Translations under genes and position numbers: made by a program
The notes under the pieces: generated by a model
What the model was told of the DNA's origin: nothing
The model's database searches: none
What the model saw: the letters and a program-made list of their open reading frames with translations, nothing else
DNA from: a virus
Lineage: Duplodnaviria; Caudoviricetes
Direction: 5' to 3' (one strand)
DNA length: 64,000 nt
Virus record (IMG/VR): IMGVR_UViG_2508501111_000003
Span: 1 to 64,000 of that record
Part shown: piece after piece, positions 14,698 to 48,700 of the stretch
How the letters are laid out: the number at the start of each line of letters is the position of its first letter
Position numbering within the stretch: the stretch's first letter is position 1

Positions 14698-14991
14698 CCA
14701 GGCATTAGCAACATTCCACGCGGCGCGGAGGTGTTTACCGCCGAAGAAACCAAGGGCATGGCCGCTCGCATGGTTGTACCCCAAGGCGGCATGGTCGGCA
14801 CGATGGCCAATGCGTTGCCAACGAATCAACCATCTGCGCCGTCGATCATCAATCAGATCACCATCGATGCGCGACAGGCCACCAATCCGGCAGCCATCAA
14901 AGCCGCCGTTGAAGAAGTCTGGAACAAGAAGATGAAAGATATTTTGGGCAGCGCCACCATCCGGCTCAAAACCAATCCATTTGGCAAATAA
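14698..14991 (+). pseudogene. 3' end of tape measure gene
   Basis: PGISNIPRGAEVFTAEETKGMAARMVVPQGG...KTNPFGK matches end of 45790..49833. Confidence 0.9.
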
Positions 14992-15027
14992 CCAACCAAA
15001 CCCTACCGCCTAAAGGAGGCGGCTTGT

Positions 15028-16401
15028 ATGACCACAATGCAACTTCTGCGCAATGGCAGTGTCGTGATCGACTTCATGCCTAGCGTAAATCCAACCGAAG
15101 GAACCACCTGTTATTGGCTTGTTGATGGCTCGTGGCAGCCGCAGGTTCCCCAACGCGACCGCCGCTTGATCTCCAATGGCGAACAATTAATGCCCAGTGT
15201 GCAATCGTTCGCCGTGAATATCTTTGGGGGAACCAATGAAGATCAGGCGTGGGCCGCCTACCACGCGCTCATGGTCTTGCTCGATGATGCCGAACGCTTC
15301 TATGAGGAAGGCTATAGCAGTGCTGTGGTGTGGCGCACCAAGCCCAGCGACAATACCGTCCATAGCGATATGCTGGTGATGGGCCGCGCTGGCGATACGC
15401 CCATGGTCGGTACATCGCCCACGCTGATTCAAGATAACGATGTCTGGTGGATTCTCAATGTGCCCGTGACGTTTCTCTGCCGCCCGCTGCGCTGCGCAAC
15501 CAGTAGCGTGAGCAGCAGCACCAGTGCCAGCGCCAATATTGCGACGATTCATCAGCCCACTTTCAGTGGCAGCGCCGCACCCATGGAAAGCCCAACCAAC
15601 CTGACCTTGAACGTGGCCGCAGCCACGAATGGGGCAACCATCAATGGCCTGATTGCCGTGGCTCCACGCGGTAAAATGGTCAAATCGGCGGCGTGGTTGT
15701 TTGCGCCCAGTCCCAGCGTGGGCGGCTGGTCACGCCAAATTCAAGCATCCGGCGTGTACGCCTCCGATAATCTGGTCTGTTTCTACAACTTCCCCAGTGT
15801 CACGCCATCCTATTCGCCCAACGGGGTCTTGACCGACATTGGCGCAATGAATTGCCGATCGGTGATTCAATGGGCCATGCTGCGCACGACCGCACCATTT
15901 CTCATTACGCCCGTGGTGCGCAGCAATGGCGCACTGATCGAAGGCCGTGCCACCCTCGTCGATAGTGCTACCCCAATCATTGTGCCACTTGGCCAAACCA
16001 GTTCACCCTACCTGATTAGCGGCCATCAGCTCAAGCTGACCAACCTAACCAACGCCGGAGCGATCTATATCAATGCCATCCTGACCATTGCCGCCGATGC
16101 AGGCGGCTGGAGTGTGATTCCCTTCGCGTCGCTGCCGCTGCCCAGCACGGCCACCACGATCATCGTCGATGCGCGCTATCTGAGCAATCCCGATGCGAGT
16201 TTGACGTGGACGAATGCCGGTGTAACCCAAGCCGTTCCGACCGATAGCAATCCCTTAGTGCTCACGAAGGATCTCCAGCTGGATGTCAACATCTTTGCCG
16301 TGAATGGCAATTCATGGAGTGCCACCGCCGAAGGTTCTGCCAGTGCTCGCACGATGACCGTCCAAGCATCACGCCTCAACAGCGCGATTATCCCACTCTA
16401 G
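15028..16401 (+). CDS. Putative distal tail protein (457 aa)
   Basis: Directly follows tape measure; near-identical to 44329..45705. Confidence 0.65.
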   Translation: MTTMQLLRNGSVVIDFMPSVNPTEGTTCYWLVDGSWQPQVPQRDRRLISNGEQLMPSVQSFAVNIFGGTNEDQAWAAYHALMVLLDDAERFYEEGYSSAVVWRTKPSDNTVHSDMLVMGRAGDTPMVGTSPTLIQDNDVWWILNVPVTFLCRPLRCATSSVSSSTSASANIATIHQPTFSGSAAPMESPTNLTLNVAAATNGATINGLIAVAPRGKMVKSAAWLFAPSPSVGGWSRQIQASGVYASDNLVCFYNFPSVTPSYSPNGVLTDIGAMNCRSVIQWAMLRTTAPFLITPVVRSNGALIEGRATLVDSATPIIVPLGQTSSPYLISGHQLKLTNLTNAGAIYINAILTIAADAGGWSVIPFASLPLPSTATTIIVDARYLSNPDASLTWTNAGVTQAVPTDSNPLVLTKDLQLDVNIFAVNGNSWSATAEGSASARTMTVQASRLNSAIIPL

Positions 16402-16410
16402 GAGGGGTTC

Positions 16411-18090
16411 ATGCAGTACGCAATCTCACTCTATGACCCCTTCACGAACGTGCAACTGGCACGGTTTGATCGCCAGGTCACCGACGCAACCCTGAGCACC
16501 AACGGACTGACCGCCAGTGTGCGACTTGCGCCCTTTATCGCGAAAACCTTGTACGCTCAAGCGCGGCTGTTGACTGCCGTGGTACAGCGCAGCGATGGTA
16601 AAATCCTGCGCTATCGCACCGTCACCCTACGCCTGATTGATCAGGGCTTGGCGCTTGAATGCCATACCCTGATCGTGGCGCTCGATGATCTGGAGTACGA
16701 TGGCTGGTGGTCAGTCACCACGCTGGATGGTTGGTTGCCCGTTGAAACCACTTCGTCCACACCCGAGCGCTGGGAGATGCGCCACGATGATGGCACGATC
16801 AGTTTGTCGCCGCGCAAGAATGAACAATTTAGCAACGCCAAGGGGATTGGTCGTCAGTCGCTCTTCATTCCGGCGAATCTGAACACCACCGGATTCCAAG
16901 TTATCCAATTCGATTGGCGCTCGAAAGGCCCCACCAATTGGCTGGCAACCTTCCTCGCTGCCGAGCGCGATTACAGCAGCCAAACCGGAGCGACCACGAT
17001 TGCCCTGGGTAATGGCACAGCCCAAACCGGATCGCTGTGCTTCACCTTCGCGGCGCGGCCCCTCGTCAGTGTTGCGATGTATTACAACGCCGCCCTCGCC
17101 ACCTATATCGGGGAAACAGGCGATGATTACCTGAAGATCAGCAACCTGCGCGTGGCCACGGTCACCACGAACATGGTCAACACGACCACCAGCGGTGCAA
17201 TTGCCATTGGCACGGCCTTTGTGCCCGTGGCGAGTACCCTCAATATCGCGGTTGGTCAACGCCTGACCATCGAAAGCGGTGGGGTGAATAGCGAGAGTGT
17301 GGTGGTCTTGGCCGTCACCGCAACCCAATTCCAAGCCACCTTTACCAAAACCCACGTCATCGGCAGCACCGTGCGCGGAATTGTGGTCACGGATAAAGAG
17401 ATTGTGGAGGATGTGTTGAGTAAGGCCCTGGCAACCAACCCAACGAGCGGGATCAAGCAGAGCAGTGCGCGGATCAGTAAGAGCAGCCGCGATTGTTTGG
17501 AAGCGGTGTGGTCAGCCGCATCCGGCTTAAGCGTGGTACAGGAGCTGGCTGCGCAGGCGCAATATGTGACGTATGTGGACGATGCGCAATACCTGTACTA
17601 TGGCCCCAAGGAAGTGGGCCGCACGTTCGCCTTGGTCGATGGCTCGATTGAACTGGAGAAAGCGCTGGGTGAGGCGACCAACCAAGTGCGGGTTGGCTAT
17701 AAAAACGCCAGCAACCAACCGCTCTATACCGCCTTCGCGGAACACGCCAGCGAGCGCTATGCCTTGGGCATCGTTCGCCAGCGCACGCTTGCCAGTGAAA
17801 CCACCGATGCAACCGAGGCGGCCACGTTGCGCAGCGTCGCATTGACCGATGCCGCGCCCACCGTTCGCGCCAGTCTGGGCGTGCGAGCCGTGCGCAATGA
17901 CTACAACGTGCGTGAGCCGCTGGATACGCTAACGCGGGGTGATGTGATTACCATTGGCGATTTGTCCGGCGCAATCAACAAACGAAGCTACACGCTGGCT
18001 GAAACCTCGGTTAATTTGGTCACGGGTGAGGTATCCGTAACGCCCGAAGCGCCGATTAAGCAGCTCGATCGGTGGCTGGCGCAGGGCTAA
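16411..18090 (+). CDS. Putative tail tip/Tal-like protein (559 aa)
   Basis: Last gene of virion operon; near-identical to 42640..44319. Confidence 0.65.
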   Translation: MQYAISLYDPFTNVQLARFDRQVTDATLSTNGLTASVRLAPFIAKTLYAQARLLTAVVQRSDGKILRYRTVTLRLIDQGLALECHTLIVALDDLEYDGWWSVTTLDGWLPVETTSSTPERWEMRHDDGTISLSPRKNEQFSNAKGIGRQSLFIPANLNTTGFQVIQFDWRSKGPTNWLATFLAAERDYSSQTGATTIALGNGTAQTGSLCFTFAARPLVSVAMYYNAALATYIGETGDDYLKISNLRVATVTTNMVNTTTSGAIAIGTAFVPVASTLNIAVGQRLTIESGGVNSESVVVLAVTATQFQATFTKTHVIGSTVRGIVVTDKEIVEDVLSKALATNPTSGIKQSSARISKSSRDCLEAVWSAASGLSVVQELAAQAQYVTYVDDAQYLYYGPKEVGRTFALVDGSIELEKALGEATNQVRVGYKNASNQPLYTAFAEHASERYALGIVRQRTLASETTDATEAATLRSVALTDAAPTVRASLGVRAVRNDYNVREPLDTLTRGDVITIGDLSGAINKRSYTLAETSVNLVTGEVSVTPEAPIKQLDRWLAQG

Positions 18091-18094
18091 ATAA

Positions 18095-18135
18095 AACAAG
18101 CGTGCAGGTGGGAACATCCCACCTGCACGCTTGTT
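18095..18135 (+). terminator. Terminator after tail gene
   Basis: AACAAGCGTGCAGGTGGGA-ACA-TCCCACCTGCACGCTTGTT perfect 19-bp stem. Confidence 0.85.
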
Positions 18136-18348
18136 TGTAAAATCCGGCCAAAACTACCACACCTTCAAGAGAAAATGTTTTCTTGGGTTGATTGATGGAG
18201 TGCTTTTTGCTACATCTCTTTTTTGTATAGTACAACCTCGCATATTACTCATGATATAGTAGGCATGGGTTCATTCGATTATATACATCCTGTGCGACAG
18301 GTTTGCCCATATATTCATTCACATCCCCTATGCACTTAAGCATCTAAG

Positions 18349-18735
18349 ATGGATAAGGAATTTCTAGCCATGACTACCCACATTCTCGTGGTTGACGACG
18401 AACCCTCCATACGAGAGTTGTTCGAAGACGTTTTAGGTGATGAAGGGTATGTCGTACACACGGTTGCAACCGGACACCAAGCCTTAGCAGTCTATCAGAC
18501 GATGCCTCTTGACCTTATTTTTATCGATATTATGATGCCTGAGATGGATGGCATAACCCTCTGTCGGCGCATTACCACTATTCCCGGGATGACTCAGCCT
18601 CCCATCATTCTCATGAGTGGAGGGACAACCGTGACCACGATTGATGGCCCGTATCAAGCATTTCTTGCCAAACCGTTTGACTTAACGAATCTTCTTCAGC
18701 TTATCCATACACTACTCAGTTCGGAACAATCATAA
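18349..18735 (+). CDS. Stand-alone response regulator receiver domain
   Basis: LVVDDE, LIFIDIMMPEMDG, IILMSG, FLAKPF. Confidence 0.9.
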   Translation: MDKEFLAMTTHILVVDDEPSIRELFEDVLGDEGYVVHTVATGHQALAVYQTMPLDLIFIDIMMPEMDGITLCRRITTIPGMTQPPIILMSGGTTVTTIDGPYQAFLAKPFDLTNLLQLIHTLLSSEQS

Positions 18736-18966
18736 TGCAACGCAGAGCACCAACCATACAGGAACAGTGGACAAATGTAGATGATTATCCCTCGTATGAA
18801 CCAAACACGCACGCTGGATTGTGGTTCATCCATCACAGGATCAAATACTGAGTCAATGAGTTCGCTTAAACGATCCGCCCAAGAAGAGCTTGTCATTCGT
18901 TGGCGCTATCTGATGTATTGCCGTCTAAAGACCAGTTATTAAGCAACTCGACCCATTGAAACAGTC

Positions 18967-19269
18967 TCATCCATGAGCACCTGCCCGCACTTTCTGATAG
19001 AAGGATAAATATAAATCCACAATCAACTCAAAACCTTCTACAGTTATCGCCCCAGCAAGCGGCTGATTGGCCCCACCACCCATACCGCCATAGAGCGCAA
19101 ACGCTCGGACTAAGGCATGATACTCATCGAGTAAATCCCCTACCACATCACGATTAACGAGGAGTAATTGCGCATAGGCTCCTCGCAAACGGTGCTCGTA
19201 CCGATATCCTAAACAGAGGCTCCGAATACCAGTCCACAGGCGGGCAACTTGATGTTCATAGGTGGGCAT
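18967..19269 (-). CDS. Conserved ~100-aa hypothetical protein (paralogue of 42211..42540)
   Basis: LVRAFALYGGMGG vs LVEAFAVHGGRGG; GFELIVDLYLSFY vs GFDTIAQLYLTLY. Confidence 0.75.
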   Translation of the reverse strand: MPTYEHQVARLWTGIRSLCLGYRYEHRLRGAYAQLLLVNRDVVGDLLDEYHALVRAFALYGGMGGGANQPLAGAITVEGFELIVDLYLSFYQKVRAGAHG

Positions 19270-19440
19270 AGCTCCCTCGCAGTCGATAGATCACCAAATA
19301 ACCGCATTACCCTCAGCCGTTTGGTCAATCCTTATCGGCCTTTCACACCCATAACAAGCAGTATGGTTTCACCATACTTTTACTCTCACGCTCACTCTAC
19401 CCGAGCATGTTCGAAGGCCATTTGAATAGTCCATCATTCT

Positions 19441-19821
19441 TTATACTGCGGCATTGTCGTTGGATACCCGAAGGAGTTGCTGGATCATCAGAAGCAGATG
19501 TCCAAGATCAAAGGGTTTCGCGAGAAAGCTACCCGCGTGGTGATCAAGGTTCAGGGCGAGTTCATTGTGGCCACTCATAACAATGATGGGAATCCCACGC
19601 GTCGCCTCGTTGCTCGCCAACAGTGATCCAATGGTACCGCCATCACCATCAGGGAGGTTGACATCCGTGAGAATTAACTGGGGTATCTGTTGCGCAAAAT
19701 AGGCCATCAATGCACCTACCGAGGTAAGACTGATGACCGCATAGCCTTCATCCGCTAAAAATTCCTCTAAAACGGCAACAATGGAATGATCATCTTCAAC
19801 AATGACAATGGTGGGCTGCAT
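19441..19821 (-). CDS. Stand-alone response regulator receiver domain
   Basis: VIVEDD, LILTDVNLPDGDG, IIVMSG, FLAKPF. Confidence 0.9.
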   Translation of the reverse strand: MQPTIVIVEDDHSIVAVLEEFLADEGYAVISLTSVGALMAYFAQQIPQLILTDVNLPDGDGGTIGSLLASNEATRGIPIIVMSGHNELALNLDHHAGSFLAKPFDLGHLLLMIQQLLRVSNDNAAV

Positions 19822-20060
19822 ACGACCTCATTGGTCTCGATGGTGCATTTAAGAATCTTCTTCGGGTTCTACTATGCCATAGATGTGCTCATGAATCAAG
19901 CACTGTCTAGCTAGAGGTATAGGAATACCACACAAACGCCATGGGTCGAACTGCAAGAGCGGAGCCAACACTCTTTGAAGGGCGCTATCAGTCTAGACAG
20001 AGACGTTCCGTCATGAACCAACCGACGATTATAGGCTATTCCCAAAGGCGCATAGGAGGT

Positions 20061-20522
20061 TTATTGAAACGCTGCGCAATCATCACGATAGGTGTGCACC
20101 CATCGCAGCGGTGAAGGCTGACAGGTATTATCCATCGAGCATATGAGGCAGCAACGGAAGGGGGTGGCTTGACAATGGCCACATTCCCAGCAGGTATAAC
20201 CAGCGCATAATCGCAAGATTGATTGTTCCATGAGATACCCATGATGCCTGTTGCGCTCAACCATCCAAAGGATGTGTGATTGTTCATTCATCACCGTGGC
20301 TGTTTTGATACCGGGGTTGGCCACGACTATCGTATCGACCAGCGCAATTAAGTGTTCAACTGATTCACTAGAATCAGGAATATAGTAGGTTAATGTTTCG
20401 TTGTACCGATACTGAATACACGCATAGGGTTTCCTTACTTTTGCCGCATTCATCGCCGTGCGAACGGCATTGATGCTCCCATCAGAGAAATCGCCTGCGT
20501 TGGCAATATCAAACGTTTGCAT
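20061..20522 (-). CDS. Hypothetical protein with Cys-rich C-terminus
   Basis: CWECGHC...CCLIC; 153 aa. Confidence 0.5.
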   Translation of the reverse strand: MQTFDIANAGDFSDGSINAVRTAMNAAKVRKPYACIQYRYNETLTYYIPDSSESVEHLIALVDTIVVANPGIKTATVMNEQSHILWMVERNRHHGYLMEQSILRLCAGYTCWECGHCQATPFRCCLICSMDNTCQPSPLRWVHTYRDDCAAFQ

Positions 20523-20798
20523 ACGCGCCTTTCCGCCATCGATTGCGATTTGTCAACCGACCGATCATCATTGATCCCACGCGGGGATAGTGTGCATTCA
20601 GGAGTTCTTTTTTGATCGCCGTAGTGGAGTAAACATCATGATCGCCCATTCCTAGTATGCCGTGTTGGTACGTGATGAGCCGTGATGCTCCACCCACGCT
20701 ACGTTAAGATCTCCCAACGGGTCAAATGAGCACTATCGGCTCTACCACGGCGGAATCAGCGAAGAAGTGCCTGGACATGGAACGACAAATCTGTTGGA

Positions 20799-20990
20799 AT
20801 GTGATCACTGTCGGCGATTTTTCTGGTGCAATCAATAAACGCAGTTACACACTAGCAGAAACCTCAGTCAATTTAGTGACAGGCGAGGTGAGTGTTACGC
20901 CGGAAGCGCCAATTTAGCAGCTGGATCTGTGGTTGTCGCAGGGCTAAAAACCAAGGAGCACGTGAAAAATTCCCACGTGCTCCTTGGTTT
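20799..20990 (+). pseudogene. Orphan tail-gene 3' end plus terminator
   Basis: VITVGDFSGAINKRSYTLAETSVNLVTGEVSVTPEAPI*QLDLWLSQG*; 17-bp stem 20948-20990 followed by T-run. Confidence 0.9.
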
Positions 20991-21012
20991 TTTTGTGCTT
21001 CAATGCTGGGCA

Positions 21013-22008
21013 TCAAGCATGGGTTGAGGGTGGTATGGTATCGGGAGTCATCGTCTGCGGATGTTCCCGTAGATCTCGCCATACATCATGGAGTTTCCAC
21101 CCAGTACTCAGAAGAATTATGCTCCATGCTCCCGTCATCATCAGCCAGTGTGCATGGTGATACACGGGATAGGTTAGTGCAATTGATTGCTTAAGTGATA
21201 TCGGGGTTGTTTTATTCGATTTTCGCTCGTGATAGGTATCAAGTGGGACACTCGTCGTAACCGTAATTAAGATCAGGACAACCGCACTCACCCAGAGTGC
21301 TGGTAATGCGCACGAGCGTGCGATATTCCACCACACAAGAGCGCTCATCCCAAGAATAAAACAAAAGAAGACGCTCATGATCATAAACTGGATGTGCGTC
21401 CAGAACCCAGCTTCAATAAATGACGCATCCACATGGAGTTGTGCTAGGATTGTATCAAACCACGCAAAGACTACAATCCCCACTGCAATACGCGTTACTC
21501 CAAGGAGCCAGAGTATCCACGTCCATCGGTAAGCACGTGGTTGCTGATTGGGGTCATAGGTTCCAACCCCAAGATAGAGAACACTGGCGATCAGGATTGC
21601 GATGGCTCCACCGATCATCCACTCCGGACCATCAAGCGAACGATGATAGTGTTGTGCCCATGTATTGTCAGATGGCTGCGGGATGAGCGAGATATCGAGC
21701 ATTCCACGAAAACGCCCGATCGGACGGCGCGATGCAACACCAGTCAATACCAGCAATCCAGCAATCCCCGCAATAGACATCCACCCAAGTCGCCAACGCT
21801 GATGATAGGCAATGCCACTAAAGACCAGTAGCAGGAGAAAGAGGATGTGTTCACCAAAATACAGGAGGATGTTATGATCGTAATACGAGGTGGTGAGCGG
21901 AGCCATAAACTGTGTATACCGAATAAGGCCAACCTGCATACCAATAACCCCAATGACCCAGAGAAGGCCAGCACACCAACGGATAGCGATACGCCAAGAA
22001 GTAATCAT
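21013..22008 (-). CDS. Polytopic membrane protein (331 aa)
   Basis: About 8-9 hydrophobic segments; AAGGAGG SD before ATG 22008. Confidence 0.7.
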   Translation of the reverse strand: MITSWRIAIRWCAGLLWVIGVIGMQVGLIRYTQFMAPLTTSYYDHNILLYFGEHILFLLLLVFSGIAYHQRWRLGWMSIAGIAGLLVLTGVASRRPIGRFRGMLDISLIPQPSDNTWAQHYHRSLDGPEWMIGGAIAILIASVLYLGVGTYDPNQQPRAYRWTWILWLLGVTRIAVGIVVFAWFDTILAQLHVDASFIEAGFWTHIQFMIMSVFFCFILGMSALVWWNIARSCALPALWVSAVVLILITVTTSVPLDTYHERKSNKTTPISLKQSIALTYPVYHHAHWLMMTGAWSIILLSTGWKLHDVWRDLREHPQTMTPDTIPPSTHA

Positions 22009-22131
22009 ACACAACCTCCTTCGTGTAGTGAGTATAGAAAGCCACTCGCTGAATGTGAATGATAGGATTATGAAATATCGAGTTGCGGGGGAACAGATGG
22101 TAAGCACTAAGGATGAGTTGATTGTGGCATT

Positions 22132-22240
22132 GAAGCTGCTGCAAGTATGTGCGCTATAGAGCGCATAGTTGGGTGGAAGCCGCCGATCTGCATTGACAGT
22201 GCCAGTCGGCGGCTCTTGTGTGCCCTGAGCGTGCTATACT
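22132..22240 (+). other. Conserved structured non-coding element X (inverted partner 40828..40941)
   Basis: Shared AAGCTGCT..TGCGC-loop-GCGCA-AGTTGGGTGRAAGCCRCCGATC..TTGACAGTGCCARTCGGCGGCTCTTGT. Confidence 0.75.
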
Positions 22241-22286
22241 AGCAAACCGTTGCCGCGTGCTTGCACCAGCATTCGGTAATAACTAA

Positions 22287-22343
22287 CAAACAGGCCACCC
22301 CTGATCAGACTGTGCTATCAACTGATCAGATGTGGCCTGTTTG
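22287..22343. repeat. Hairpin family Y, copy 1 (loop CTGTGCTATCAA)
   Basis: CAAACAGGCCAC..CTGATCAG-loop-CTGATCAG..GTGGCCTGTTTG. Confidence 0.75.
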
Positions 22344-22434
22344 AGTAACAAAAGTCCATTATCTTGAAAGATAATGGACAAAAGAAAAACCCACGCCGTG
22401 TGGTGTGGGTTTTGTGATCCTCGCGAGAGGATGT

Positions 22435-22536
22435 GGTGAGGTGGCGGTTACGCCCGAAGCCCCGATTAAGCAACTCGACCTGTGGCTGGCACAAGCCTAA
22501 AAGAAACAAGAGCACGTGGAAAATTTCCACGTGCTC
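22435..22536 (+). pseudogene. Orphan tail-gene 3' end plus hairpin
   Basis: GEVAVTPEAPIKQLDLWLAQA*; GAGCACGTGGAAA-A-TTTCCACGTGCTC. Confidence 0.9.
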
Positions 22537-22986
22537 CCTCGCATAGCCACCAACCCAACCATACCTGTTCGCACCTTACCAATTGAACAGGTTCGCGATG
22601 AATTCCCAACGAGCGATAGCGGCTCCCCATGGGGCATCCACGGTACTAGCACCCATGCTGGTGTCGTTCGGCTGCGCAGGGTTGGTATACTTCCTGCTGC
22701 ATCTGAGGGAACACCGAAGGAGGCTTTGCATGGACGTAAGACACTAGCTCCGCGCACGAACGACACCGCCGCACGAAACCGGATACAAGAGTGCACGACT
22801 CTTGCAGTGTGAGACAACGACGGTCATCTGCTCGGGAGGGATAGTGCTTGTCTGGCAAAGGATGTCGTGCCCATCGATGCAGGCGACAATGGGCATCGTC
22901 ACCTCGATGGAACACGACCACCACAGGCACGGTTGATGAGCAGCCCCGCACCGAGGCAGGAGACCGTCCCACCCAAGGAGCGATTA

Positions 22987-23229
22987 ATGCCCCGAAATAC
23001 GTTTCCATACCGCTTTCAGCCCGTCCGCCGTGGTGATGTGATTTACCTTCCCAACGGCACGACCGTGCCGATGATCCATGGTGGGTTGGTGGTTGTGTTT
23101 GGTGACTGTGTGCTTGGCCCTTTTCGTTCCCGCCATATTGCCGAGATCGAGGCCAGTTACCATTCCCAAAAGTTGCTCTTGCCTGATGCCATTCCTGCCG
23201 TTGGTGGTAGGTTTGGTCTGATCAGCTAA
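22987..23229 (+). CDS. Small hypothetical protein (80 aa)
   Basis: AAGGAG SD; protein-like composition; followed by long hairpin. Confidence 0.5.
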   Translation: MPRNTFPYRFQPVRRGDVIYLPNGTTVPMIHGGLVVVFGDCVLGPFRSRHIAEIEASYHSQKLLLPDAIPAVGGRFGLIS

Positions 23230-23237
23230 CCCGTCCA

Positions 23238-23297
23238 TGTGGCATCGTCATACCCATCATACGTCATCACGGGATGGATGGGTATGACGATGCCACA
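23238..23297. repeat. Perfect 21-bp inverted repeat with 18-nt loop
   Basis: TGTGGCATCGTCATACCCATC / GATGGGTATGACGATGCCACA. Confidence 0.85.
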
Positions 23298-23358
23298 CTG
23301 ACCTCTTGGTGTCTGGCCTGCGCATCAAGCAAGGAAATAGTTGGTGAACCTTTACATC

Positions 23359-23408
23359 ACACCACGCCCCTGATCGAACTGTGCTGCAACCGATCAGGGA
23401 CGTGGTGT
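23359..23408 (+). terminator. Hairpin family Y, copy 2 (loop CTGTGCTGCAA) with T-run
   Basis: ACACCACG.CCCTGATCG-loop-CGATCAGGG.CGTGGTGT-TTTTTAG. Confidence 0.75.
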
Positions 23409-23673
23409 TTTTTAGCGCCTCAATTTATGGATTCACTGGGCGGAGCCGCCAACTGCTGATTAATGATATCCATCAAAATATGTCGATGGGCTTCAGTCGA
23501 TAAGATGCGACCCTGCAACGCCAACTGCGTCGAAGAGTTCGCCATTTGAGAGATCGTCAATGATTGCCTCGATCTGGGCCAGTGCTTCATGTTTCTGCAT
23601 GATGGACTCCTTCTATAGATTCTTAGTAAGAGCCACACGAACGCGATTTCTGGCATGAATGGGGAAATATCCG

Positions 23674-23730
23674 CTAAAACCACAAACGGCTCGCAAATCG
23701 GAGCCGCTTGTGGGAGTGAAGAGAGAGGAG
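23674..23730 (-). terminator. Third copy of the Replic_Relax-module end/terminator
   Basis: CTAAAACCACAAACGGCTC-loop-GAGCCGCTTGTGGGAGTGAAGAGAGAGGAG matches 26094 and 34013 ends. Confidence 0.8.
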
Positions 23731-23915
23731 GATATGAATTTCGATAGTCCTAGTATACCCATCAGTTCGTGCCATAACGAGGCCTATCAGTCCTTAACAT
23801 TCATGACACTGGTACTAGCATTGTCTAGTCTTTTTTTATGGGAGCCATCTATAGCATCATTGAATGCACACCTGCGAACTCATACACTGCTATTTTGTCG
23901 CATCGCAGCCATCCA

Positions 23916-24416: not shown

Positions 24417-24657
24417 AGCAGAACATCCTTGTTGCTACCGAGCAATTGCCGTATCCATTCGCGTGGTGATGGTAATCCTAGGAACTGCAACTAACGAACA
24501 ACCTTACGCACATTTGAGGAATCCAATAAGTACCTATATTAATATATACACGTCTCTATAAAACTATCTCTTGCCTCATTGAATCCATATCTTTCTAACC
24601 GAATCCTAGCCAGAATGGTTGTGCGAAGTCATATAATCACCTTTATTTGGAGGATGT

Positions 24658-26064: not shown

Positions 26065-26199
26065 ATTGAACTCCAATGATTAACGTTCACAGCCTAAAAC
26101 CACAAACGACCCGCTGGGGTCGCTTGTGGGAGAGAAGAGAGAGGAGAAGGTTTGACTTCAGTATACCAGAAGATGTGGGTTATCACTATTAGAATGTTA

Positions 26200-36844: not shown

Positions 36845-36871
36845 ACCGATGATATAAGCAAGGAGACCTTT

Positions 36872-37390: not shown

Positions 37391-37394
37391 AACT

Positions 37395-40610: not shown

Positions 40611-40724
40611 GCGGGGAATGGTGGGGGGCGTGCGCGTTTATCAAGCAGCACGCTCCGGCTTGGTAGCAGTGCGGGTTTTACTTTTGTCCACTATCCCTCA
40701 AGATGCTGGAATTTTATCGCTAAA

Positions 40725-40776
40725 ACACCACGACCCTGATTCGGGCTGTGCTATCAACCGACCAGGGTCGTGGTGT
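40725..40776. repeat. Hairpin family Y, copy 3 (loop CTGTGCTATCAA)
   Basis: ACACCACGACCCTG..loop..CAGGGTCGTGGTGT; T-run on minus strand. Confidence 0.75.
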
Positions 40777-40827
40777 GAATTGTCATTTTGCTCGTGAGCC
40801 TGCGCAGTATCCTACGAGCGATTGCAG

Positions 40828-40941
40828 TATATCATAGCGACTTTGGGGCTTACAAGAGCCGCCGATTGGCACTGTCAAGGCTGATCGGTGGCTTTCACCC
40901 AACTTGCGCTACGAGGGCGCACACGGTTGCTTAAGCAGCTT
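40828..40941 (-). other. Structured element X, copy 2
   Basis: Reverse complement aligns with 22132..22240. Confidence 0.75.
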
Positions 40942-40953
40942 GAGTGTCATAGG

Positions 40954-41904
40954 CTAGTCAACGAATTGGTTTTCGGATGTCTTACTCCGAATGATGCCTG
41001 CAAACAATAAGAGCGCTTCACGAAACTTGTCATGCTCGACTACAACGAGCTTGTGTAATCCGTCTAATGTGTGCGGTTGATTCGCGGATGTTGATATGGC
41101 TCCTATGGGTCGTGGCGATAACTCATGTATCAAGGCATTTCGCAATACTTTCAGTTCACTGGTCTTGCCTATATAAGCTATGCGTATCTTATTGAACGCG
41201 TCAAAAAAATAGCATTGGTTATCATTCCCTTTAATCTTTGTAGGGATACTTTCATCAAATAATGTTTTCCATTCACTATCTTTTTTAGGAGGTATCAGAC
41301 CAAAGTATGCGGGAAGCGCATATTTTGTAAGTCGCTCCCAGGATGATGTGATTCTTATAATACAGTTTTCTAGATACGTCCATGCTCGTAATATGCCAAT
41401 ATTAACTTGGCTCATACTGATTATATTTACATTGGCCCCTAATTTCTTTCTTCGGTTTTTATACCTCTGCAAATCTGATAGATTCAAAAAATCATAAACA
41501 CCTATATCTACCCACTGATTAAATAATGTATCAATCTGGGTTTCTGGGTACAAAAATCGCCCAAATCCCTCAAGGTTACAATTGATAAGCATAAACTGGC
41601 TGTCTATTTCCAGAGCTATTCCAACGGTTTTAATACGGTTTTTCATTTCATCATCAAATACGTGCCATGCACTAGGCCAAGACTTTTGGTATGTTATTGA
41701 TTTGCGGATAACCTTATTGTTGCCATCGAGCTTGGCCGGAAGCCCATAAAGATAGAGGGCATGGAGGTTTCTTAAATTTGCACGAATGCTCTCTGGTATG
41801 TCGATCACTGACTCTTCTTGTTTATGAGTTTCATGAGAGGTTTTCGTCCATCGTACTCCTATACCCATTACGGATTCATTTTCGTTGATATTGAGATCTT
41901 CCAT
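40954..41904 (-). CDS. Putative HEPN-domain protein (Cthe_2314-like)
   Basis: LENCIIRITSSWERL helix and R-x4-H motif RNALIH. Confidence 0.6.
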   Translation of the reverse strand: MEDLNINENESVMGIGVRWTKTSHETHKQEESVIDIPESIRANLRNLHALYLYGLPAKLDGNNKVIRKSITYQKSWPSAWHVFDDEMKNRIKTVGIALEIDSQFMLINCNLEGFGRFLYPETQIDTLFNQWVDIGVYDFLNLSDLQRYKNRRKKLGANVNIISMSQVNIGILRAWTYLENCIIRITSSWERLTKYALPAYFGLIPPKKDSEWKTLFDESIPTKIKGNDNQCYFFDAFNKIRIAYIGKTSELKVLRNALIHELSPRPIGAISTSANQPHTLDGLHKLVVVEHDKFREALLLFAGIIRSKTSENQFVD

Positions 41905-42086
41905 GATGCCCTCCCAGCATTATCCTGTCAGAACAACAATGCGGCGTTAATGATAAATATATGACATCTTCGCTTGACCTACTAGGCTGCATGAACCAAT
42001 ACATGCCGTTTAATACTCTATTAAGAGTGTTGGTACACTCAAATGGCCGCTAGGCCGCTCTGGCAGTGGTGCGAGGGGTGTTTGTG

Positions 42087-42141
42087 GTAGTGCAGTCGTA
42101 GTGAAGCTGTAGTGCAATGGTAGTGAAACGGTAGTGCAGTG
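42087..42141. repeat. Five tandem 11-bp repeats (iteron-like)
   Basis: GTAGTGCAGTC GTAGTGAAGCT GTAGTGCAATG GTAGTGAAACG GTAGTGCAGTG. Confidence 0.85.
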
Positions 42142-42210
42142 CGATTGAGGGATTGACCAAACGGCTGTGGCATGATTGAATTGTGGGGAAACATTTTGTT
42201 GGGGGTGGCT

Positions 42211-42540
42211 ATGACAAGGTACGAGCAACCTTTATTCCAGCTTCGAGACGGGGTAGGCCGTTTATGCTCTAGTGGTTCACTAGATGAGCGACTGGACGGT
42301 GCTTACGGGCATTTTGCCGCAACGTCCCTTTTCTTTACTGCAATAGATGATACAGCAATCGACACATTAGTTGCGGTGCGCGATGTCTATTCCCGTTTAG
42401 TGGAAGCATTTGCTGTTCATGGCGGGCGAGGTGGGTCTGACCATGAATCTATAAAAGGCGATTTAACACCAGCAGGTTTTGATACAATCGCGCAGTTATA
42501 TCTAACTCTTTATGATACACTACGAGGCCAAGACCTCTAA
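42211..42540 (+). CDS. Conserved ~100-aa hypothetical protein (paralogue of 18967..19269)
   Basis: MTRYEQ..L..G+..LC...RL.GAY pattern shared. Confidence 0.75.
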   Translation: MTRYEQPLFQLRDGVGRLCSSGSLDERLDGAYGHFAATSLFFTAIDDTAIDTLVAVRDVYSRLVEAFAVHGGRGGSDHESIKGDLTPAGFDTIAQLYLTLYDTLRGQDL

Positions 42541-42602
42541 ACGACAAAACGACGGTCGCCGGAGCGCACACGCCGTTTTGTGGAAGCATCACTTCATATC
42601 AA

Positions 42603-42631
42603 GGAGTACTTGGTACTACCCCAAGTGCTCC
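42603..42631 (-). terminator. Hairpin after tail gene
   Basis: GGAGTACTTGG-TACTACC-CCAAGTGCTCC. Confidence 0.65.
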
Positions 42632-42639
42632 CTTCTTTA

Positions 42640-44319
42640 TTAGCCCTGCGCCAGCCAGAGATCGAGTTGCTTGATCGGTGCTTCGGGCGTAACACTCACC
42701 TCACCTGTCACGAGATTAACCGAGGTTTCCGCCAGTGTATAACTGCGTTTGTTGATCGCACCGGATAAATCGCCGATGGTGATCACGTCGCCCCGACTGA
42801 GCAGGTCAAGCGGCTCTCTTACGTTGTACTCATTGCGCACGGCGCGGACACCCAAGCTGGCGCGAACGGTCGGTGCAGCATCGGTTAGGGCTACACTGCG
42901 CAACGTGGCCGCTTCGGTCGCGTCGGTGGTTTCGCTGGCAATGGTGCGCTGGCGGACAATGCCTAAGGCATAGCGCTCGCTGGCGTTTTCCGCAAACGCG
43001 GTATAGAGTGGCTGGTTACTCGCGTTTTTGTAGGCAAAACGTACCTGATTGGTTGCCTCGCCCAGTGCTTTCTCTAACTCAATCGAGCCATCGACCAAGG
43101 CGAAGGTGCGGCCCACTTCTTTAGGGCCAAAGTACAGATATTGGGCATCGTCAACATAGGTGACATACTGCGCCTGATCAGCCAACTCCTGCACCACGCT
43201 TAAGCCCGATGCAGCCGACCATACGGCTTCCAAACAATCGCGACTACTCTTGCTGATCCGCGCACTGCTCTGCTTGATCCCGCTACCCGGGTTGGTTGTG
43301 AGGTTGCGGCTTAAGACATCCTCCACAATCTCTTTGTCCGTGACCACAATCCCGCGCACCGTGCTGCCCAGAACGTGGGTCTTGGTGAAGGCGGCTTGGA
43401 ATTGGGTCGCGGTGACGGCCAAGACTACGACGCTCTCACTATTCGCGCCGCCGCTTTCGATGGTCAGGCGTTGGCCAACCGCGATATTGGCGGTACTCGC
43501 CACGGTCACAAAGGCTGTGCCGATGGCAATCGCGCCGCTGGTCGTGGTGTTCACCATATTGGTGGTGACGGTGGCCACGCGGAGGTTGCTGATCTTCAGG
43601 TAATCATCGCCTGTTTCGCCAATATAGGTTGCCAGCGCCGCGTTGTAATACATCGCAACACTAACCAAGGGCCGCGCCGCGAAGGTGAAGCACATGGAGC
43701 CAGTTTGGGCCGTGCCGTTGCCGAGGGCAATCGTGGTGGCTCCGGTTTGGCTGCTGTAGTCGCGCTCGGCAGCGAGGAAGGTCGCCAGCCAATTGGTTGG
43801 GCCTTTGAACCGCCAATCGAACTGAATCACCTGAAAGCCGGTAGTGTTCAGATTCGCCGGAATGAACATGGATTGACGGCCAATCCCCTTGGCGTTCGAG
43901 AATTGTTCGTTTTTGCGCGGAGACAGGCTGATCGTGCTATCGTCGTGGCGCATCTCCCAGCGCTCGGGCGTGGACGAGGCGGTTTCTACGGGCAACCAGC
44001 CATCGAGCTTGGTGACTGACCACCAGCCATCGTACTCCAAGTCATCGAGCGTGACGATCAGATTGTGGCATTCAATCGCCAAGCCCTGATCAATCAAGCG
44101 CAGGGTTACGGTGCGATAGCGCAAAACCTTGCCATCGTTGCGTTGCACCACAGCGGTCAATAATCGCGCTTGGGCATACAGCGTTTTGGCGATGAACGGC
44201 GCAAGGCGCACACTGGCGGTTAGGCCATTGGTGCTCAAGGTTGCGTCCGTGACCTGGCGATCAAACCGTGCCAGTTGCACATTGGTGAAGGGATCATAAA
44301 GCGAAATCGCGTACTGCAT
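42640..44319 (-). CDS. Putative tail tip/Tal-like protein (559 aa)
   Basis: Last gene of virion operon. Confidence 0.65.
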   Translation of the reverse strand: MQYAISLYDPFTNVQLARFDRQVTDATLSTNGLTASVRLAPFIAKTLYAQARLLTAVVQRNDGKVLRYRTVTLRLIDQGLAIECHNLIVTLDDLEYDGWWSVTKLDGWLPVETASSTPERWEMRHDDSTISLSPRKNEQFSNAKGIGRQSMFIPANLNTTGFQVIQFDWRFKGPTNWLATFLAAERDYSSQTGATTIALGNGTAQTGSMCFTFAARPLVSVAMYYNAALATYIGETGDDYLKISNLRVATVTTNMVNTTTSGAIAIGTAFVTVASTANIAVGQRLTIESGGANSESVVVLAVTATQFQAAFTKTHVLGSTVRGIVVTDKEIVEDVLSRNLTTNPGSGIKQSSARISKSSRDCLEAVWSAASGLSVVQELADQAQYVTYVDDAQYLYFGPKEVGRTFALVDGSIELEKALGEATNQVRFAYKNASNQPLYTAFAENASERYALGIVRQRTIASETTDATEAATLRSVALTDAAPTVRASLGVRAVRNEYNVREPLDLLSRGDVITIGDLSGAINKRSYTLAETSVNLVTGEVSVTPEAPIKQLDLWLAQG

Positions 44320-44328: not shown

Positions 44329-45705
44329 CTACAGTGGAATAATCGCGCCGTTGAGGCGTGATGCTTGGACGGTCATGGTGCGAGCACTGGCGGCATTTTC
44401 GGTGGTGGCACTCCAGGCATTGCCATTGACCGCAAACAAATTGACATCCAGCTGGAGATCCTTCGTCAATGCCAAGGGATTGCTATCGGTGGGCACGGCT
44501 TGGGTCACGCCTGCGCTGGTGTAGGTCAAACTGGCATCGGGATTGCTCAGATAGCGGGCATCGACGGTGATCGTGGTGGTCGTGCTCGGGAGCGGCAGCG
44601 ATGCGAACGGAATCACACTCCAGCCGCCTGCATCGGCGGCAATCGTCAGGATGGCGTTGATGTAGATCGCTCCAGCGTTGGTCAGATTGGTCAGCTTGAG
44701 TTGATGACCCGTGATTAAGTAGGGTGCGCTGGTTTGGCCAAGCGGGACAATGATCGGCGTGGCACTATCGACGAGGGTCGCACGGCCTTCGATCAACGCG
44801 CCATTGCTCCGCACGACAGGCGTAATGAGGAATGGTGCGGTGGTTTTGAGCATCGCCCATTGAATCACCGAGCGGCTATTGAGCGGCCCAATATCCGTCA
44901 AGACCCCGTTCGGTGAATAGGATGGCGTGACGCTGGGAAAGTTGTAGAAACAGACCAGATTATCAGTGGCATAGACTCCTGATGCCTGAATTTGGCGTGA
45001 CCAGCCAAAGACACTGGGACTGGGCGCAAACAACCACGCCGCCGATTTGACCATTTTGCCACGTGGCGCGACGGCAATCAATCCACTAATGGTTGCGCCG
45101 TTGGTCGCTGCGGCCACGTTCAGGGTGAGGTTGGTGGGGCTTTCCAGCGGGGCTGCGCTGCCGCTGAAATTCGGCTGATGAATAGTGGCAATATTGGCAC
45201 TGGCGCTGGTGCTGCTGCTCACACTACTGGCGGCGCAACGCAGCGGACGACAGAGAAAGGTGACAGGCACATTCAGAATCCACCAAACATCATTGTCTTG
45301 GATCAAGGTGGGCGATGTGCCAACCATGGGCGTATCGCCTGCGCGGCCCATCACCAGCATATCGCTATGGACGGTGGTATCACTGGGCTTGGTACGCCAC
45401 ACGACTGCGCTACTATAGCCTTCTTCATAGAAACGCTCAGCATCATCGAGCAAGACCATCAGCGCGTGATAGGCGGCCCACGCCTGATCTTCATTGGTTC
45501 CGCCGAAGATGTTCACGGCAAACGATTGCACGCTCGGCTGAAACTGTTCGCCATTGGAGATCAGACGGCGGTCACGCTGCGGCACTTGCGGCTGCCATGA
45601 GCCATCGACGAGCCAATAACAGGTGGTTCCTTCGGTTGGGTTTACGCCAGCAGGCATGAAATCAATCACGACGCTGCCATTGCGCAAGAGTTGCATGGTT
45701 GTCAT
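44329..45705 (-). CDS. Putative distal tail protein (458 aa)
   Basis: Follows tape measure; start 45705 by SD and paralogue. Confidence 0.65.
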   Translation of the reverse strand: MTTMQLLRNGSVVIDFMPAGVNPTEGTTCYWLVDGSWQPQVPQRDRRLISNGEQFQPSVQSFAVNIFGGTNEDQAWAAYHALMVLLDDAERFYEEGYSSAVVWRTKPSDTTVHSDMLVMGRAGDTPMVGTSPTLIQDNDVWWILNVPVTFLCRPLRCAASSVSSSTSASANIATIHQPNFSGSAAPLESPTNLTLNVAAATNGATISGLIAVAPRGKMVKSAAWLFAPSPSVFGWSRQIQASGVYATDNLVCFYNFPSVTPSYSPNGVLTDIGPLNSRSVIQWAMLKTTAPFLITPVVRSNGALIEGRATLVDSATPIIVPLGQTSAPYLITGHQLKLTNLTNAGAIYINAILTIAADAGGWSVIPFASLPLPSTTTTITVDARYLSNPDASLTYTSAGVTQAVPTDSNPLALTKDLQLDVNLFAVNGNAWSATTENAASARTMTVQASRLNGAIIPL

Positions 45706-45789
45706 AAATCCGCCCTCCTTTGGGCGGGGGTTTGGTTGGGTTAATGGTCGTGTGTGCAGGGTTGTTTCAGCCCTGCACACGGTCAATCG

Positions 45790-48700
45790 TTATTTGCCAT
45801 ATGGATTGGTTTTGAGCAGGATATTGGCGCTACCCAAAATATCTTTCATCTTCTTGTTCCAGACTTCTTCAACGGCGGCTTTGATGGCTGCCGGATTGGT
45901 GGCCTGTCGCGCATCGATGGTGATCTGATTGATGATCGACGGCGCAGATGGTTGATTCGTTGGCAACGCATTGGACAGCGTGCCCACCATGCCGCCTTGC
46001 GGGACGACCATCCGCGCAGCCATGCCCTTGGTTTCTTCGGCGGTGAACACCTCCGCGCCGCGTGGAATATTGCTAATACCTGGTGGCAGCAGGGCAAAGT
46101 CACCACCCCGCGTGCGCATGGCTTCGATGCCTTTCCACGGCTCGGACGCAAAGGCCAAACCGCCCGCCCAGTTTTTCACGCCGTCTGCTAAGTAGGGAAT
46201 CAGTGGAATACCACCGAAGCCCAAGGCGGAGCCAACGGTATTCGCGCCTTCAATGAGTTTGTTGACGGCGGTGATCATCAGGTTGAGTGGGGATTTAATG
46301 CCACTGAGGATGCCGCGAAAGGCTTCTACAATCCCGTTGGTAATTTCATCCCACACCGCAGCACTGGCATCCTTAATCCATTGCCATGCCACCGCAACCC
46401 CGTTTTTGAATTGCTCCAAAAAGCCATCAAGGTTGTCGAGCACACCGCCAAACATCGTGCGGAAGTAGTCGCTGATGCCATCCCACGCGGTGCTGATGCC
46501 CGTGCCAATGAGATCCCACGCCACCACCAAGAGGTTCCAGACGACCTCCAGTGCTCCCTTCACGATGTCGATGATGCCATTCCAGAGTCCAGCAAAGACA
46601 TCCTTGATTGCCGTCCATGCGCCTGACCAATCGCCCTGAATCACGGCGCTGACGGTTTTGATCACGCCTTGAATCACGCTCATGGCGGCTTCAACGATGC
46701 CCTTGATGATGCTCCATGCGCCACTGAGCAGGCCCGTGATCTGGTCTTTGTGGTCGCTGAGGAAGGTGGCGATGCCGTGGAAGAATGGAATGATCGCACC
46801 ATTGATCACATCCAGTGCGCCATCAATGACGACCTGAATGGTTTCCCACGCCATCGTCAGCACGCCTTTGATTTCTTCGCCGTGCTGCTCGAGGAAGGTT
46901 CGGATTGCGCCGAGTGCCGTTTGAATCACCGTGCCAACCGCGCCCAGCACCGTGCTGACAATGCCCTCAATCCGGCCCCACGCATTGCGGAGGAACGTCA
47001 CGATCTGCTCGCCGTTCTCGCGGAACCAGCTGGTGATGATGCCCCACGCGGTTTGTACCATGGACTGAATCGATGTAAAGACCTCGGTCGTGATGGTGCG
47101 AATAGTGGCGAAATTGGTTTGCCACGCCAATCCCAGCGCTGCGGCTCCAGCTACCAGCAAGCCCATCGGTGAAACGAGTGCGGCTACCGCTCCCGCCAAA
47201 CCGGAGAACAGGGACACCAGTCCCATACCCGTGAAGAGTGCCGCAATGCCCATGAATGCGCCTTTAACCGATTCAATAAACGGGGCGGCTTGGCTGAAGG
47301 CGTTGCGAATCCGGTCGATCAAGGACGGTACAGGCGCAGTGGCAGTCGCCATTTCGACTTGGCGATCCTTCAAATCAGCATAGCGATCGGCGGCTGCCTC
47401 GGCTCCGGTGGCTGCATCCTGCATGGATTGATTGGTTTCGTCCGCCCCATCCTTGACCTTGGTGAATGGTGGAACGAGCGCACCCACGCCTTTGGCTGCT
47501 CCCTTGGCGGCTCCGCCTACACCCTTCATCTTCTCGGCTGACGCTTCCAGCTCTTTTTGTTGCTGGGCTTCGAGCTGCAAAATCTGGGTTTTGATGCGCC
47601 AGTATTCGGATTGATCGGCGTTGGTATTGGCCAATTCACCTTGTAGGATTGCTAGTTTGCCAGCGGTGTCAGCGGTGGCATACTGATAATCCCGCTCGGC
47701 TTTGGCCGCTTCGTCCTGTTTGCGTTTGACTTCCTCCAGCTCGCGCTGGCGTTGTTTCTCGGCTTTGTTAATCTCCTGCTGAATGTCGTTGTATTCGGCG
47801 CTGCCCTCGGCATATTGACCCTGTTCTTGGCGCAAGCGAGCTAACTGATCCTCAGTGGACATGAGGCTTAACTCATAGTCGCGTTGCTCCTTGGCCAGTT
47901 TATTGAGTTCCGCCTGACGTTTCTGCTCTTCCTGATTAATCTGCCCTTGCAGTCGCCAATACTCGGCATCGGTCGTAGCATAGGCGGCTTGCTTGTCCTT
48001 GAGCATCTGCAAGCGATCGACAGTTCCGGCAATACTGAATGTGTATTCCCACTGCGCACGGGCCGCCGCTTCAGCGTTCTTGGCGGCATCGTCCATCGGG
48101 GATTTGCCACCGCCACCTCCGCCACCACTCGCTTTGGGCTTTTTGGTTTCTTGCTCGGCAGCTTTAGCCTGCTCCTCGCGAATCTTTTGGCGCAGCTTCA
48201 GCGCGGCCAATTCGAGCTTGGCCTGTTCGCGGTCGCTGTCTTTACCACCCGTGCTGTTGATCAGCGCCAAGAGCTGCTGTTCTTGGGCTGCTTCCTTGAC
48301 CCGCTGCTGCGCATCTTCAATGGATTTCAGTTCGGTTTCGAGATAGGCCAGCAAGCCATCGGTGGGCAGCCGCGCATCATTCCAGCCATCCATCCAGACT
48401 TGGGCGGTATCGCGACCCCATGTGTCGATGTTGGGTAATAACTTTGGTGGGGAGTGCGGTTCAAGCCAGTAGGTGATAAGGTCGCCAATGTATCCCAAGC
48501 TATCGACGACCGCACCAGCACCACCCATAATCCCGTTGGCTAACTGGGTGGCAATGTTGCTGCCCCATTGCACGGCGCTTGATGCGAGGTCAATGAACAG
48601 ACCAAAGGCTTCGCTCGCGGTGCTGGCAAAGTCAAGGAAATACGGGCCAACCATCTGAACCGCTGCGCCAATCCGCTCAAACGCTCCCACGACCACGGCG

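Follow-up and report, generated by a model that had tools for sequence, protein, structure and literature searches.

How does a phage-derived stretch of a bacterial chromosome come to read as a mirror image of itself over 31 kb, with different cargo in each arm? The question is raised by a 64,000-nucleotide (nt) stretch of DNA (the window throughout), recorded as the viral sequence IMGVR_UViG_2508501111_000003 and corresponding to C1:1539375-1603374 of a 6.79-Mb genome made up of a chromosome (6.35 Mb) and two further replicons (340 and 99 kb). An earlier note on this DNA had described nested landmark pairs about a midpoint near 30 kb and had offered two readings, namely two sibling elements joined end to end or an old inverted duplication. 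Our analysis argues strongly for the first. The mirror is very probably the seam of two related temperate phage genomes that inserted successively, in opposite directions, into the end of one and the same tRNA-Gly gene of a Herpetosiphon chromosome. With high confidence we read the whole locus as three temperate prophages, siblings of the siphovirus type, stacked at the 3' end of this tRNA-Gly(TCC) gene. An attachment (att) core at the seam, an integrase belonging to the right element itself, opposite integration polarities and single-arm versions elsewhere all speak for two joined siblings.

Self-comparison bore out nearly all the proposed landmarks. The tail modules form an inverted repeat (14698-18095 / 46083-42636; 85% nt and 93-95% amino acid (aa) identity), and so do the Replic_Relax blocks (26094-27871 / 34013-32234; 89% nt, with 95% aa in the PF13814 protein). 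A short landmark, element X, pairs 22125-22225 with 40949-40846 (80% nt), and the two genes of ~100 aa (18985-19272, minus strand / 42208-42525, plus strand) share an aa identity of 35% only. Divergent membrane-protein operons meet near 29.9 kb, with no detectable homology between the two, and the fillers of the arms differ as claimed, the hot-spot cargo of the left arm being unlike that of the right. Orphan tail ends had also been listed as a mirror pair; those of the left arm are present, but blastn-short and tblastn detected no such end at the partner position of ~37545. The mirror repeats are far beyond chance, and the arms differ at 11-15% of positions.

An att core at the axis of the mirror

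At the mirror axis, in a gap of ~120 nt separating the two divergent operons, lies a 17-nt core whose coordinates are listed with those of the other features in Table 1. Its sole other copy in the genome is found 55 kb rightward, within an intact tRNA, at window-equivalent 84908-84924 (coordinates so named extend the window numbering past its ends on the same chromosome). A search of the 6.79-Mb genome for the 15-nt core GGAGCGGGAGACGAG gives exactly two occurrences (29871 and 84910), when ~0.01 extra copies would be expected genome-wide by chance, and no further core copy exists within 130 kb even if up to three mismatches are allowed. The core was found by an exact-pattern search; blastn-short with the tRNA-Gly region had missed the 17-nt core. 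There is no tRNA inside the window.

Because the cores form a pair, one of them in tRNA-Gly, the right element is a 55-kb prophage extending over 29869-84924. The two bounding cores are perfect direct repeats, and between them lie a complete virion module and a lysogeny/replication module. TerL, a MuF-like protein, the major capsid protein, the tail tube and the tape-measure protein were identified by Pfam; the portal (a 523-aa gene), which has no Pfam match, was assigned by gene order alone. Past the window, the prophage continues with a divergent early operon encoding AAA_24 and DnaC/IstB-like loader proteins, followed by the integrase. The right prophage is thus complete and looks intact, and the right arm of the mirror is its left third.

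The absence of an integrase from the window, pointed out in the earlier note, is literally correct, but a large serine recombinase (LSR) is encoded at window-equivalent 83518-85041 (L037:1892-3415), 19.5 kb past the window and abutting the tRNA-Gly. It contains Resolvase (PF00239, 6.7e-36), Recombinase (PF07508) and Zn_ribbon_recom (PF13408) domains, a three-domain architecture shared by the integrases of the two stand-alone prophages described below at tRNA-Lys and in genome G006. Its frame (83497-85038) reads through the core into the tRNA. Genome-wide searches recovered a second LSR at C1:608.9-610.4 kb and no tyrosine integrase (PF00589) or rve transposase near either locus.

Stand-alone prophages and two integration polarities

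Single-arm versions of the structure exist at tRNA-Lys in the same genome and at tRNA-Gly in relatives, in both orientations. The genome carrying the window (G000) was compared with others (numbered G001-G007); a search with the 559-aa tail protein gave Herpetosiphon geysericola DSM 7119 and a Chloroflexia metagenome-assembled genome as close relatives. In the same chromosome, a sibling (C1:608943-659005; 86-89% nt in structural genes) that is collinear with the right prophage over the full length lies between two 17-nt copies of the tRNA-Lys(TTT) 3' end, at 608943 and 658989. The integrase of this sibling, 29% identical to the LSR of the right prophage, also reads into its own tRNA, and membrane genes resembling R285 and R146 of the right arm are located at the end opposite the integrase.

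Two types of element can be distinguished at tRNA-Gly. G006 contains one type A prophage between cores at 1379386 and 1433534, its integrase distal and its Replic_Relax/membrane-gene end at the tRNA. Next to this tRNA, ~70-90 nt are the orthologue of window 29798-29868; the match with the left arm continues in the neighbouring genes as far as 28784, and the left-arm gene L206 is collinear with the G006 prophage end. The layers in G006 are a remnant, an integrase scar, a core, the full type A prophage, a core and the tRNA, and this genome appears to preserve a state that lacks both the last layer and the deletion discussed below. G003 contains one type B prophage, collinear with the right element, with cores 52.8 kb apart and the integrase at the tRNA; its far junction consists of a short type A arm scar, the core and an R81-like gene, with 82.7% identity to window 29804-30206. 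G002 has a type B integrase end at the tRNA, and G005 a short type A arm scar only. The nearest approach to an empty site is offered by G001 and G004, each with a single core and no prophage at tRNA-Gly, but their flank consists of the last ~125-135 codons of a degraded integrase gene. The G001 flank sequence, which proved to be this integrase-gene scar, had no match in G000, G002, G003, G005 or G007, and the left host boundary is not definable from G001 because the genomes are rearranged.

Herpetosiphon synteny breaks exactly at the tRNA-Gly prophage locus (G001 C11:~306.9-326.9 kb and G006 C1:1.37-1.454 Mb, each versus G000). The G001 flank maps to 1.92 Mb in G000, and G006 has reciprocal changes of junction (1.6446 and 2.0000 Mb). 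It is possible that the stacked prophages are a hot spot of rearrangement.

What separates the two types is the polarity of the core. The conserved part of both integrases ends in ...RI(K/R)PTAAFAPLFP, and the proteins diverge thereafter. The type B integrase frame (right element, G002 and G003) reads the core as GGAGCGGG..., antisense to the tRNA, whereas that of type A (G006, and the left element by its orthologous arm) reads the complement. As judged from these frames, a core that is tRNA-sense relative to the integrase gene would place the membrane-gene/Replic_Relax end of type A beside the tRNA, and an antisense core would place the integrase end of type B there. The circular form of both types would read integrase, core, membrane genes and Replic_Relax. 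With opposite core polarity and the same circular order, the two types would insert in opposite directions, so that syntenic genomes become mirrored about the core. The landmark pairs are concentric around 29869-29885 because the two elements share one gene order (tail, cargo with element X, Replic_Relax, membrane genes, att) and run in opposite directions.

In all three integrase types the att core is inside the reading frame (83497-85038, C1:608870-610393 and G006 C1:1379309-1380847), and the last ~25-45 integrase codons differ between the prophage form and the circular form. The type B integrase, for example, has 507 aa from the first Met (83518) with its tRNA-antisense end, versus ~483 aa in the circular form. 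This exchange of tails could be incidental or a state-dependent switch.

Older layers and competing explanations

The left arm (14698-29868) is what survives, from tail to att, of an older type A sibling prophage, cut inside the tape-measure gene. To the left of 14698 lie the helix-turn-helix (HTH) gene and early operon of another element, E3, in the orientation that a single deletion predicts. E3 occupies about -11.4 to 14.7 kb in window coordinates and runs in the same direction as the right arm. Its positions 575-944 match 43678-44051 and its positions 943-1762 match 60662-61490, which amounts to a 16.6-kb internal deletion, and 12259-13133 match window-equivalent 77.6-78.15 kb and the tRNA-Lys prophage (copy 4) at 619.9-620.2 kb. 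E3 is probably a third and oldest remnant, gutted, in type B orientation. The earlier note had captured the mirror but neither the integrase and att sites nor the nature of the left arm, a remnant left by deletion and joined to a third element.

A simple history would account for these layers. Each phage would carry an LSR, the presumed catalyst, whose gene spans the phage attachment site (attP), and attP would hold the last 16 nt of the tRNA. E3 would have been inserted first (type B orientation), then the left element (type A) and then the right element (type B), each entering the tRNA end rebuilt by the preceding one, with the type B phage using the end regenerated by type A. A later single deletion of ~40 kb would have removed the tape-measure-to-integrase part of type A together with the integrase end of E3, giving the fusion at 14698. 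Elements would be older the farther they lie from the tRNA, from the intact-looking right element through the truncated left one to the gutted E3.

The mirror might instead have arisen from prophages (or a prophage and a partial duplicate) in tandem direct order, one of them inverted later by homologous or LSR-mediated recombination. Many Herpetosiphon rearrangement breakpoints fall at this locus, inverted repeats of 3.4 and 1.8 kb are good substrates and ectopic exchange between copies does occur. Such an inversion is not needed, however. The perfect direct repeats bounding the right prophage and its integrase directed into an intact tRNA are as in G002 and G003, the orientation and terminal arm of the left element match the single type A prophage of G006, and the C-terminal tails of the integrases show that the core polarity itself differs between types. 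We consider a later inversion improbable.

The alternative put forward in the earlier note fares worse. One ancient event, the inverted duplication of a ~15-kb segment (tail, cargo and Replic_Relax) whose two copies then diverged and replaced their cargo independently, agrees with the conserved order and mirror orientation of the landmarks and with within-genome copies being more alike than those of other species. It is largely refuted and, in our judgement, very improbable: the axis is an att core with its partner in a tRNA 55 kb away, the right arm is continuous with a complete prophage while the left, truncated by deletion, is joined to a third element, and the att-proximal genes are non-homologous, matching the two integration types found singly in relatives. 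Divergence among the landmark pairs is non-uniform as well and does not favour one duplication event. Synonymous divergence (dS) between left and right ranges from 0.77 (559-aa gene) and 0.71 (457-aa gene) through 0.46 (Replic_Relax) to 0.26 (orf151), and identity from 96% nt at the tape-measure end to 35% aa in the 100-aa genes. The arms are not each other's closest copies, since in the tail genes left and right (dS 0.71-0.77) are the most distant of the three pairs in this genome, the others being left and copy 4 (0.41-0.52) and right and copy 4 (0.58-0.65). The ratio of non-synonymous to synonymous divergence (dN/dS) is 0.05-0.1 throughout the landmark pairs, and a left copy without a capsid that had been resident since a duplication would hardly be expected to show such strong purifying selection (dN/dS ~0.05). 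The divergence pattern is one of phage mosaicism, not of one duplication.

Two local departures from the average divergence stand out. The C-terminal segment of the tape-measure gene (14790-14978 versus 45800-45990) is 96% identical between the arms and ~58% identical to the tRNA-Lys copy, the reverse of the adjacent tail genes; the tape-measure end marks a sharp mosaic boundary. In the left-arm fibre gene, a run of 458 nt (16762-17219) matches the tRNA-Lys copy, 900 kb away at C1:~638-639 kb, without a single difference, while left and right differ there at 58 sites. With one mismatch the identical run extends to 539 nt (16762-17300 versus C1:~638.7-639.2 kb), amid 12-16% divergence. The 16762-17219 stretch is a recent ectopic gene-conversion tract between the remnant and an intact prophage.

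Repeated prophage DNA is commonly mis-assembled, but repeat collapse or a mis-join creating a false palindrome-like arrangement is a negligible prospect here because the genome is in 3 contigs (99.99% completeness) and the arms, differing at 11-15% of positions, are not collapsible, and G003 independently has the same seam (type A arm, core, R81). Two further candidates were rejected: a Mu-like transposable phage, and a phage-plasmid, the element being chromosomal and att-bounded, with no partition genes among the open reading frames (ORFs) scanned, which were not all of them.

Several points weigh against serial integration of three prophages as set out above. The three copies in G000 are closer to each other (85-89% nt) than to copies from other species (78%), and phylogenetic inference is blurred because of this within-genome closeness and gene conversion. 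No virgin bacterial attachment site (attB) with both host flanks was recovered, the Herpetosiphon genomes being rearranged here and G001 and G004 carrying a scar. Support for the 14698 junction comes from this assembly only. A scan of the reconstructed attP/attB sites, uninformative in itself, gave no clear dyad symmetry. An att identity of 17 bp and a target in a tRNA are habits more of tyrosine than of serine integrases. For tyrosine integrases, attB sites that overlap a tRNA and have its 3' end rebuilt are the rule (PMC8092301). A very divergent recombinase missed by the searches is possible, and excision, as well as the action of the LSRs on these sites, is predicted from sequence only.

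A bolder extension would make the flip of the core in attP a selected strategy for stacking at one tRNA without long direct repeats. Recombination between co-resident elements would then invert or convert rather than delete, the mirror arms, capsid-less remnants included, would serve as a reservoir of tail fibres and cargo, and the integrase tail swap could act as an integration-state switch. We regard this proposal as doubtful.

Cargo, other features and known systems

Table 1. Positions of the features at the tRNA-Gly locus, in window or window-equivalent coordinates
Feature	Position	Strand	Remarks
Mirror axis, 17-nt att core TTGGAGCGGGAGACGAG	29869-29885	+	Antisense of tRNA-Gly(TCC) 3' end; left att site of right prophage
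tRNA-Gly(TCC)	84909-84983 (window-equivalent)	-	Overlaps 3' end of recombinase frame
Right (type B) att-proximal genes	29961-32093	+	R81, membrane protein R285 (30206-31063), R146, R152
Right Replic_Relax block	32234-34013	+
Right-arm cargo	34014-42639		C5-methylase fragment, TRADD-N-associated membrane protein, MmeI-like Type IIG restriction-modification enzyme (37833-40610)
Element X, right copy	40833-40949		Within 34014-42639
122-aa paralogue	42172-42540		Within 34014-42639
Last tail gene, 559 aa, right	42640-44319	-
Tail gene, 485 aa, right	44329-45786	-
Full tape-measure gene, right	45790-49881	-
Rest of right structural module	50119-62391	-	Tail tube, major capsid, MuF-like, portal, TerL, TerS, two upstream genes
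Tail tube	50904-51500	-	Pfam
Major capsid protein	53607-54695	-	Pfam
TerS/TerL	59395-61478	-
Tape-measure remainder, left	14698-14991	+	Last ~97 codons; 95% aa to 45793-46083
Distal tail gene, 457 aa, left	15028-16401	+	Intact; 93% aa to right copy; dN/dS 0.06
Last tail (fibre-like) gene, 559 aa, left	16411-18090	+	Intact
Fibre gene's own 3' end	17942-18136	+	With hairpin
Orphan fibre 3' ends	20799-20989, 22435-22537	+	~100-190 nt, each with hairpin; bracket cargo cassettes
100-aa gene, left	18967-19269	-	35% aa to paralogue 42172-42540
Element X, left copy	22125-22238
Left Replic_Relax block	26094-27871	-	Replic_Relax gene 26773-28020; small ORFs 26200-26673, 26094-26474
Left (type A) att-proximal membrane genes	28214-29839	-	L206 28214-28834; L313 28898-29839
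Terminal arm of left (type A) element	29798-29868		Orthologous to sequence abutting tRNA-Gly in G006 and G005
E3 fibre-terminase fusion	389-1762	-	559-aa fibre gene fragments fused at 943-945 to TerL 5' end and TerS
E3 lysis genes	1870-2909	-	Amidase endolysin 1870-2430 (PF01510); holin 2427-2909 (PF05105)
E3 island genes	4130-9620		C5 cytosine methylase 4130-5377; Z1/ResIII helicase-like 5364-7439 (PADLOC Helicase_II); HNH endonucleases 7562-8584, 8937-9620
E3 Cro/CI-type HTH regulator	11024-11440	-	Paralogue of the five HTH genes of right prophage (74.6-77.2 kb)
E3 early operon	11970-14697	+	Cut at 14697/14698

Cargo varies in a hot spot that lies between the fibre gene and the Replic_Relax block. 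In the left arm this hot spot encodes two response regulators, a membrane protein, a Roadblock/LC7 protein and an amine oxidase. Among ten cargo proteins submitted to PADLOC, only the MmeI-like Type IIG enzyme and the Z1/helicase protein were recognised. The latter belongs to a low-GC (0.32-0.36) island in E3, which is likely to be a cassette for restriction or defence that occupies the phage's second cargo hot spot. Stacked orphan fibre 3' ends like those in the left arm are also found in E3 (-4702..-4616 and -3185..-3083) and in the G006 remnant (1376.6k and 1378.1k), and they are missing from the intact right prophage and the tRNA-Lys copy. Element X is likewise kept downstream of the tail-fibre gene in G006 (1423850-1424123) and H. 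geysericola (L026:14032-14226), and is a conserved backbone element at this position in the phage family. It has no Rfam family, nor was any Rfam family found elsewhere in the window. No Pfam or PHROG family was assigned to the 457/485-aa and 559-aa tail genes, the 100-aa paralogues, L313, L206, R285 or R146, and R285 fell only into unnamed viral or Chloroflexota clusters in the ESM Atlas.

Replic_Relax is a family of winged helix-turn-helix and PD-(D/E)XK proteins linked to plasmid replication and relaxation (PMC3424549). Homologues are encoded on both plasmids (C2:156422-157060 and C3:332-1000), and a fourth chromosomal copy lies at C1:768597-769178, with tyrosine integrases nearby (744 kb and 778 kb). 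Plasmids and phages of this organism have the family in common. A repeat of 57-125 nt occurs at the outer edge of both Replic_Relax blocks (26094-26204 and 33896-34013), again at 23674-23730, and at more than 10 other chromosomal sites, including C1:339.8k, 430.8k, 589.6k, 766.0k, 1527.9k, 3181.8k and 3712.1k. It is present in the prophage cargo of relatives too, and may be a module joint resembling a miniature inverted-repeat transposable element or a terminator.

Past the window, five tandem paralogous Cro/CI-type HTH_3 genes (window-equivalent 74626-77172; L013:10623-13172; minus strand) stand upstream of the right prophage's divergent early operon; E3 (Table 1) and G006 have one HTH_3 copy each. 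An insertion sequence, with a DDE_Tnp_1 gene of GC 0.61 (window-equivalent 66367-67809; L013:2367-3809), lies between the packaging genes and this HTH cluster.

The closest parallel is provided by prophiT36-2a/b of Mycobacterium abscessus, in which a second phage entered attL/attR of a resident prophage at a tRNA site, an arrangement described as unusual (PMC9934374). There, as here, site-specific integration has brought two temperate phages, related but distinct, one after the other into one tRNA site; the more recent arrival sits beside the regenerated tRNA end, and the att core is repeated at the prophage-prophage junction. The systems differ in that LSRs are found here and tyrosine integrases there, in that the result here is a mirror rather than a tandem because of the opposite core polarity in attP, and in that three layers are stacked here, the older two truncated, and known from sequence alone.

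With the phage LSRs of phiC31, Bxb1, A118 and TP901-1 (reference 37 in PMC8092301), the integrases described here share the Resolvase-Recombinase-zinc-ribbon architecture, a gene at the prophage end by the att site and a short shared core. Unlike the phiC31/Bxb1 type, they appear to target a tRNA 3' end, with a 17-bp identity that rebuilds the tRNA, and their frame runs through attP, so that the last ~25-45 codons would change on integration.

Defective prophages can be recombination partners of intact phages, a subject of work on Rad52-like recombinases, and inverted repeats carried by prophages can be substrates for chromosomal inversions, as in Streptococcus pyogenes and E. coli O157. The present locus resembles such systems in its capsid-less remnant with intact tail genes, its 458-nt exchange with a prophage 900 kb away and the synteny break at the locus, but the exchange here is gene conversion, not crossover, and no inversion isomer of the arms was observed. 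Inverted tail-fibre copies on one chromosome also recall the Mu G and P1 C segments. A Gin/Cin-type switch was rejected: the only Resolvase-domain matches on this chromosome stretch are the 500-aa integrases, with no small serine invertase near the arms and no short crossover sites identified, and the arms, 24.5 kb apart, are whole genes of two separate prophages.

The process is ordinary prophage biology, serial site-specific integration with opposite attP polarity, although the resulting pattern is unusually tidy, and the phenomenon is an explained variant of polylysogeny. A 31-kb 'palindromic' architecture without an integrase is thereby resolved into textbook serial site-specific integration. 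The analysis also documents an undescribed family of ~50-55-kb temperate phages in Herpetosiphon, a predatory genus of Chloroflexota whose prophages are barely characterised; for a sister species, only one incomplete PHAST hit has been reported (PMC6210107). Three features of the family deserve attention: serine integrases that would target and rebuild tRNA 3' ends, with a frame crossing attP; two sibling types of opposite att polarity at the same tRNA, which would give mirror rather than tandem stacking; and a layered record at the locus, in which older elements would be those farther from the tRNA and more degraded, together with a recent fibre-gene conversion between a remnant and an intact prophage. 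The integrases and their att sites could become tools for a phylum in which genetics is little developed.

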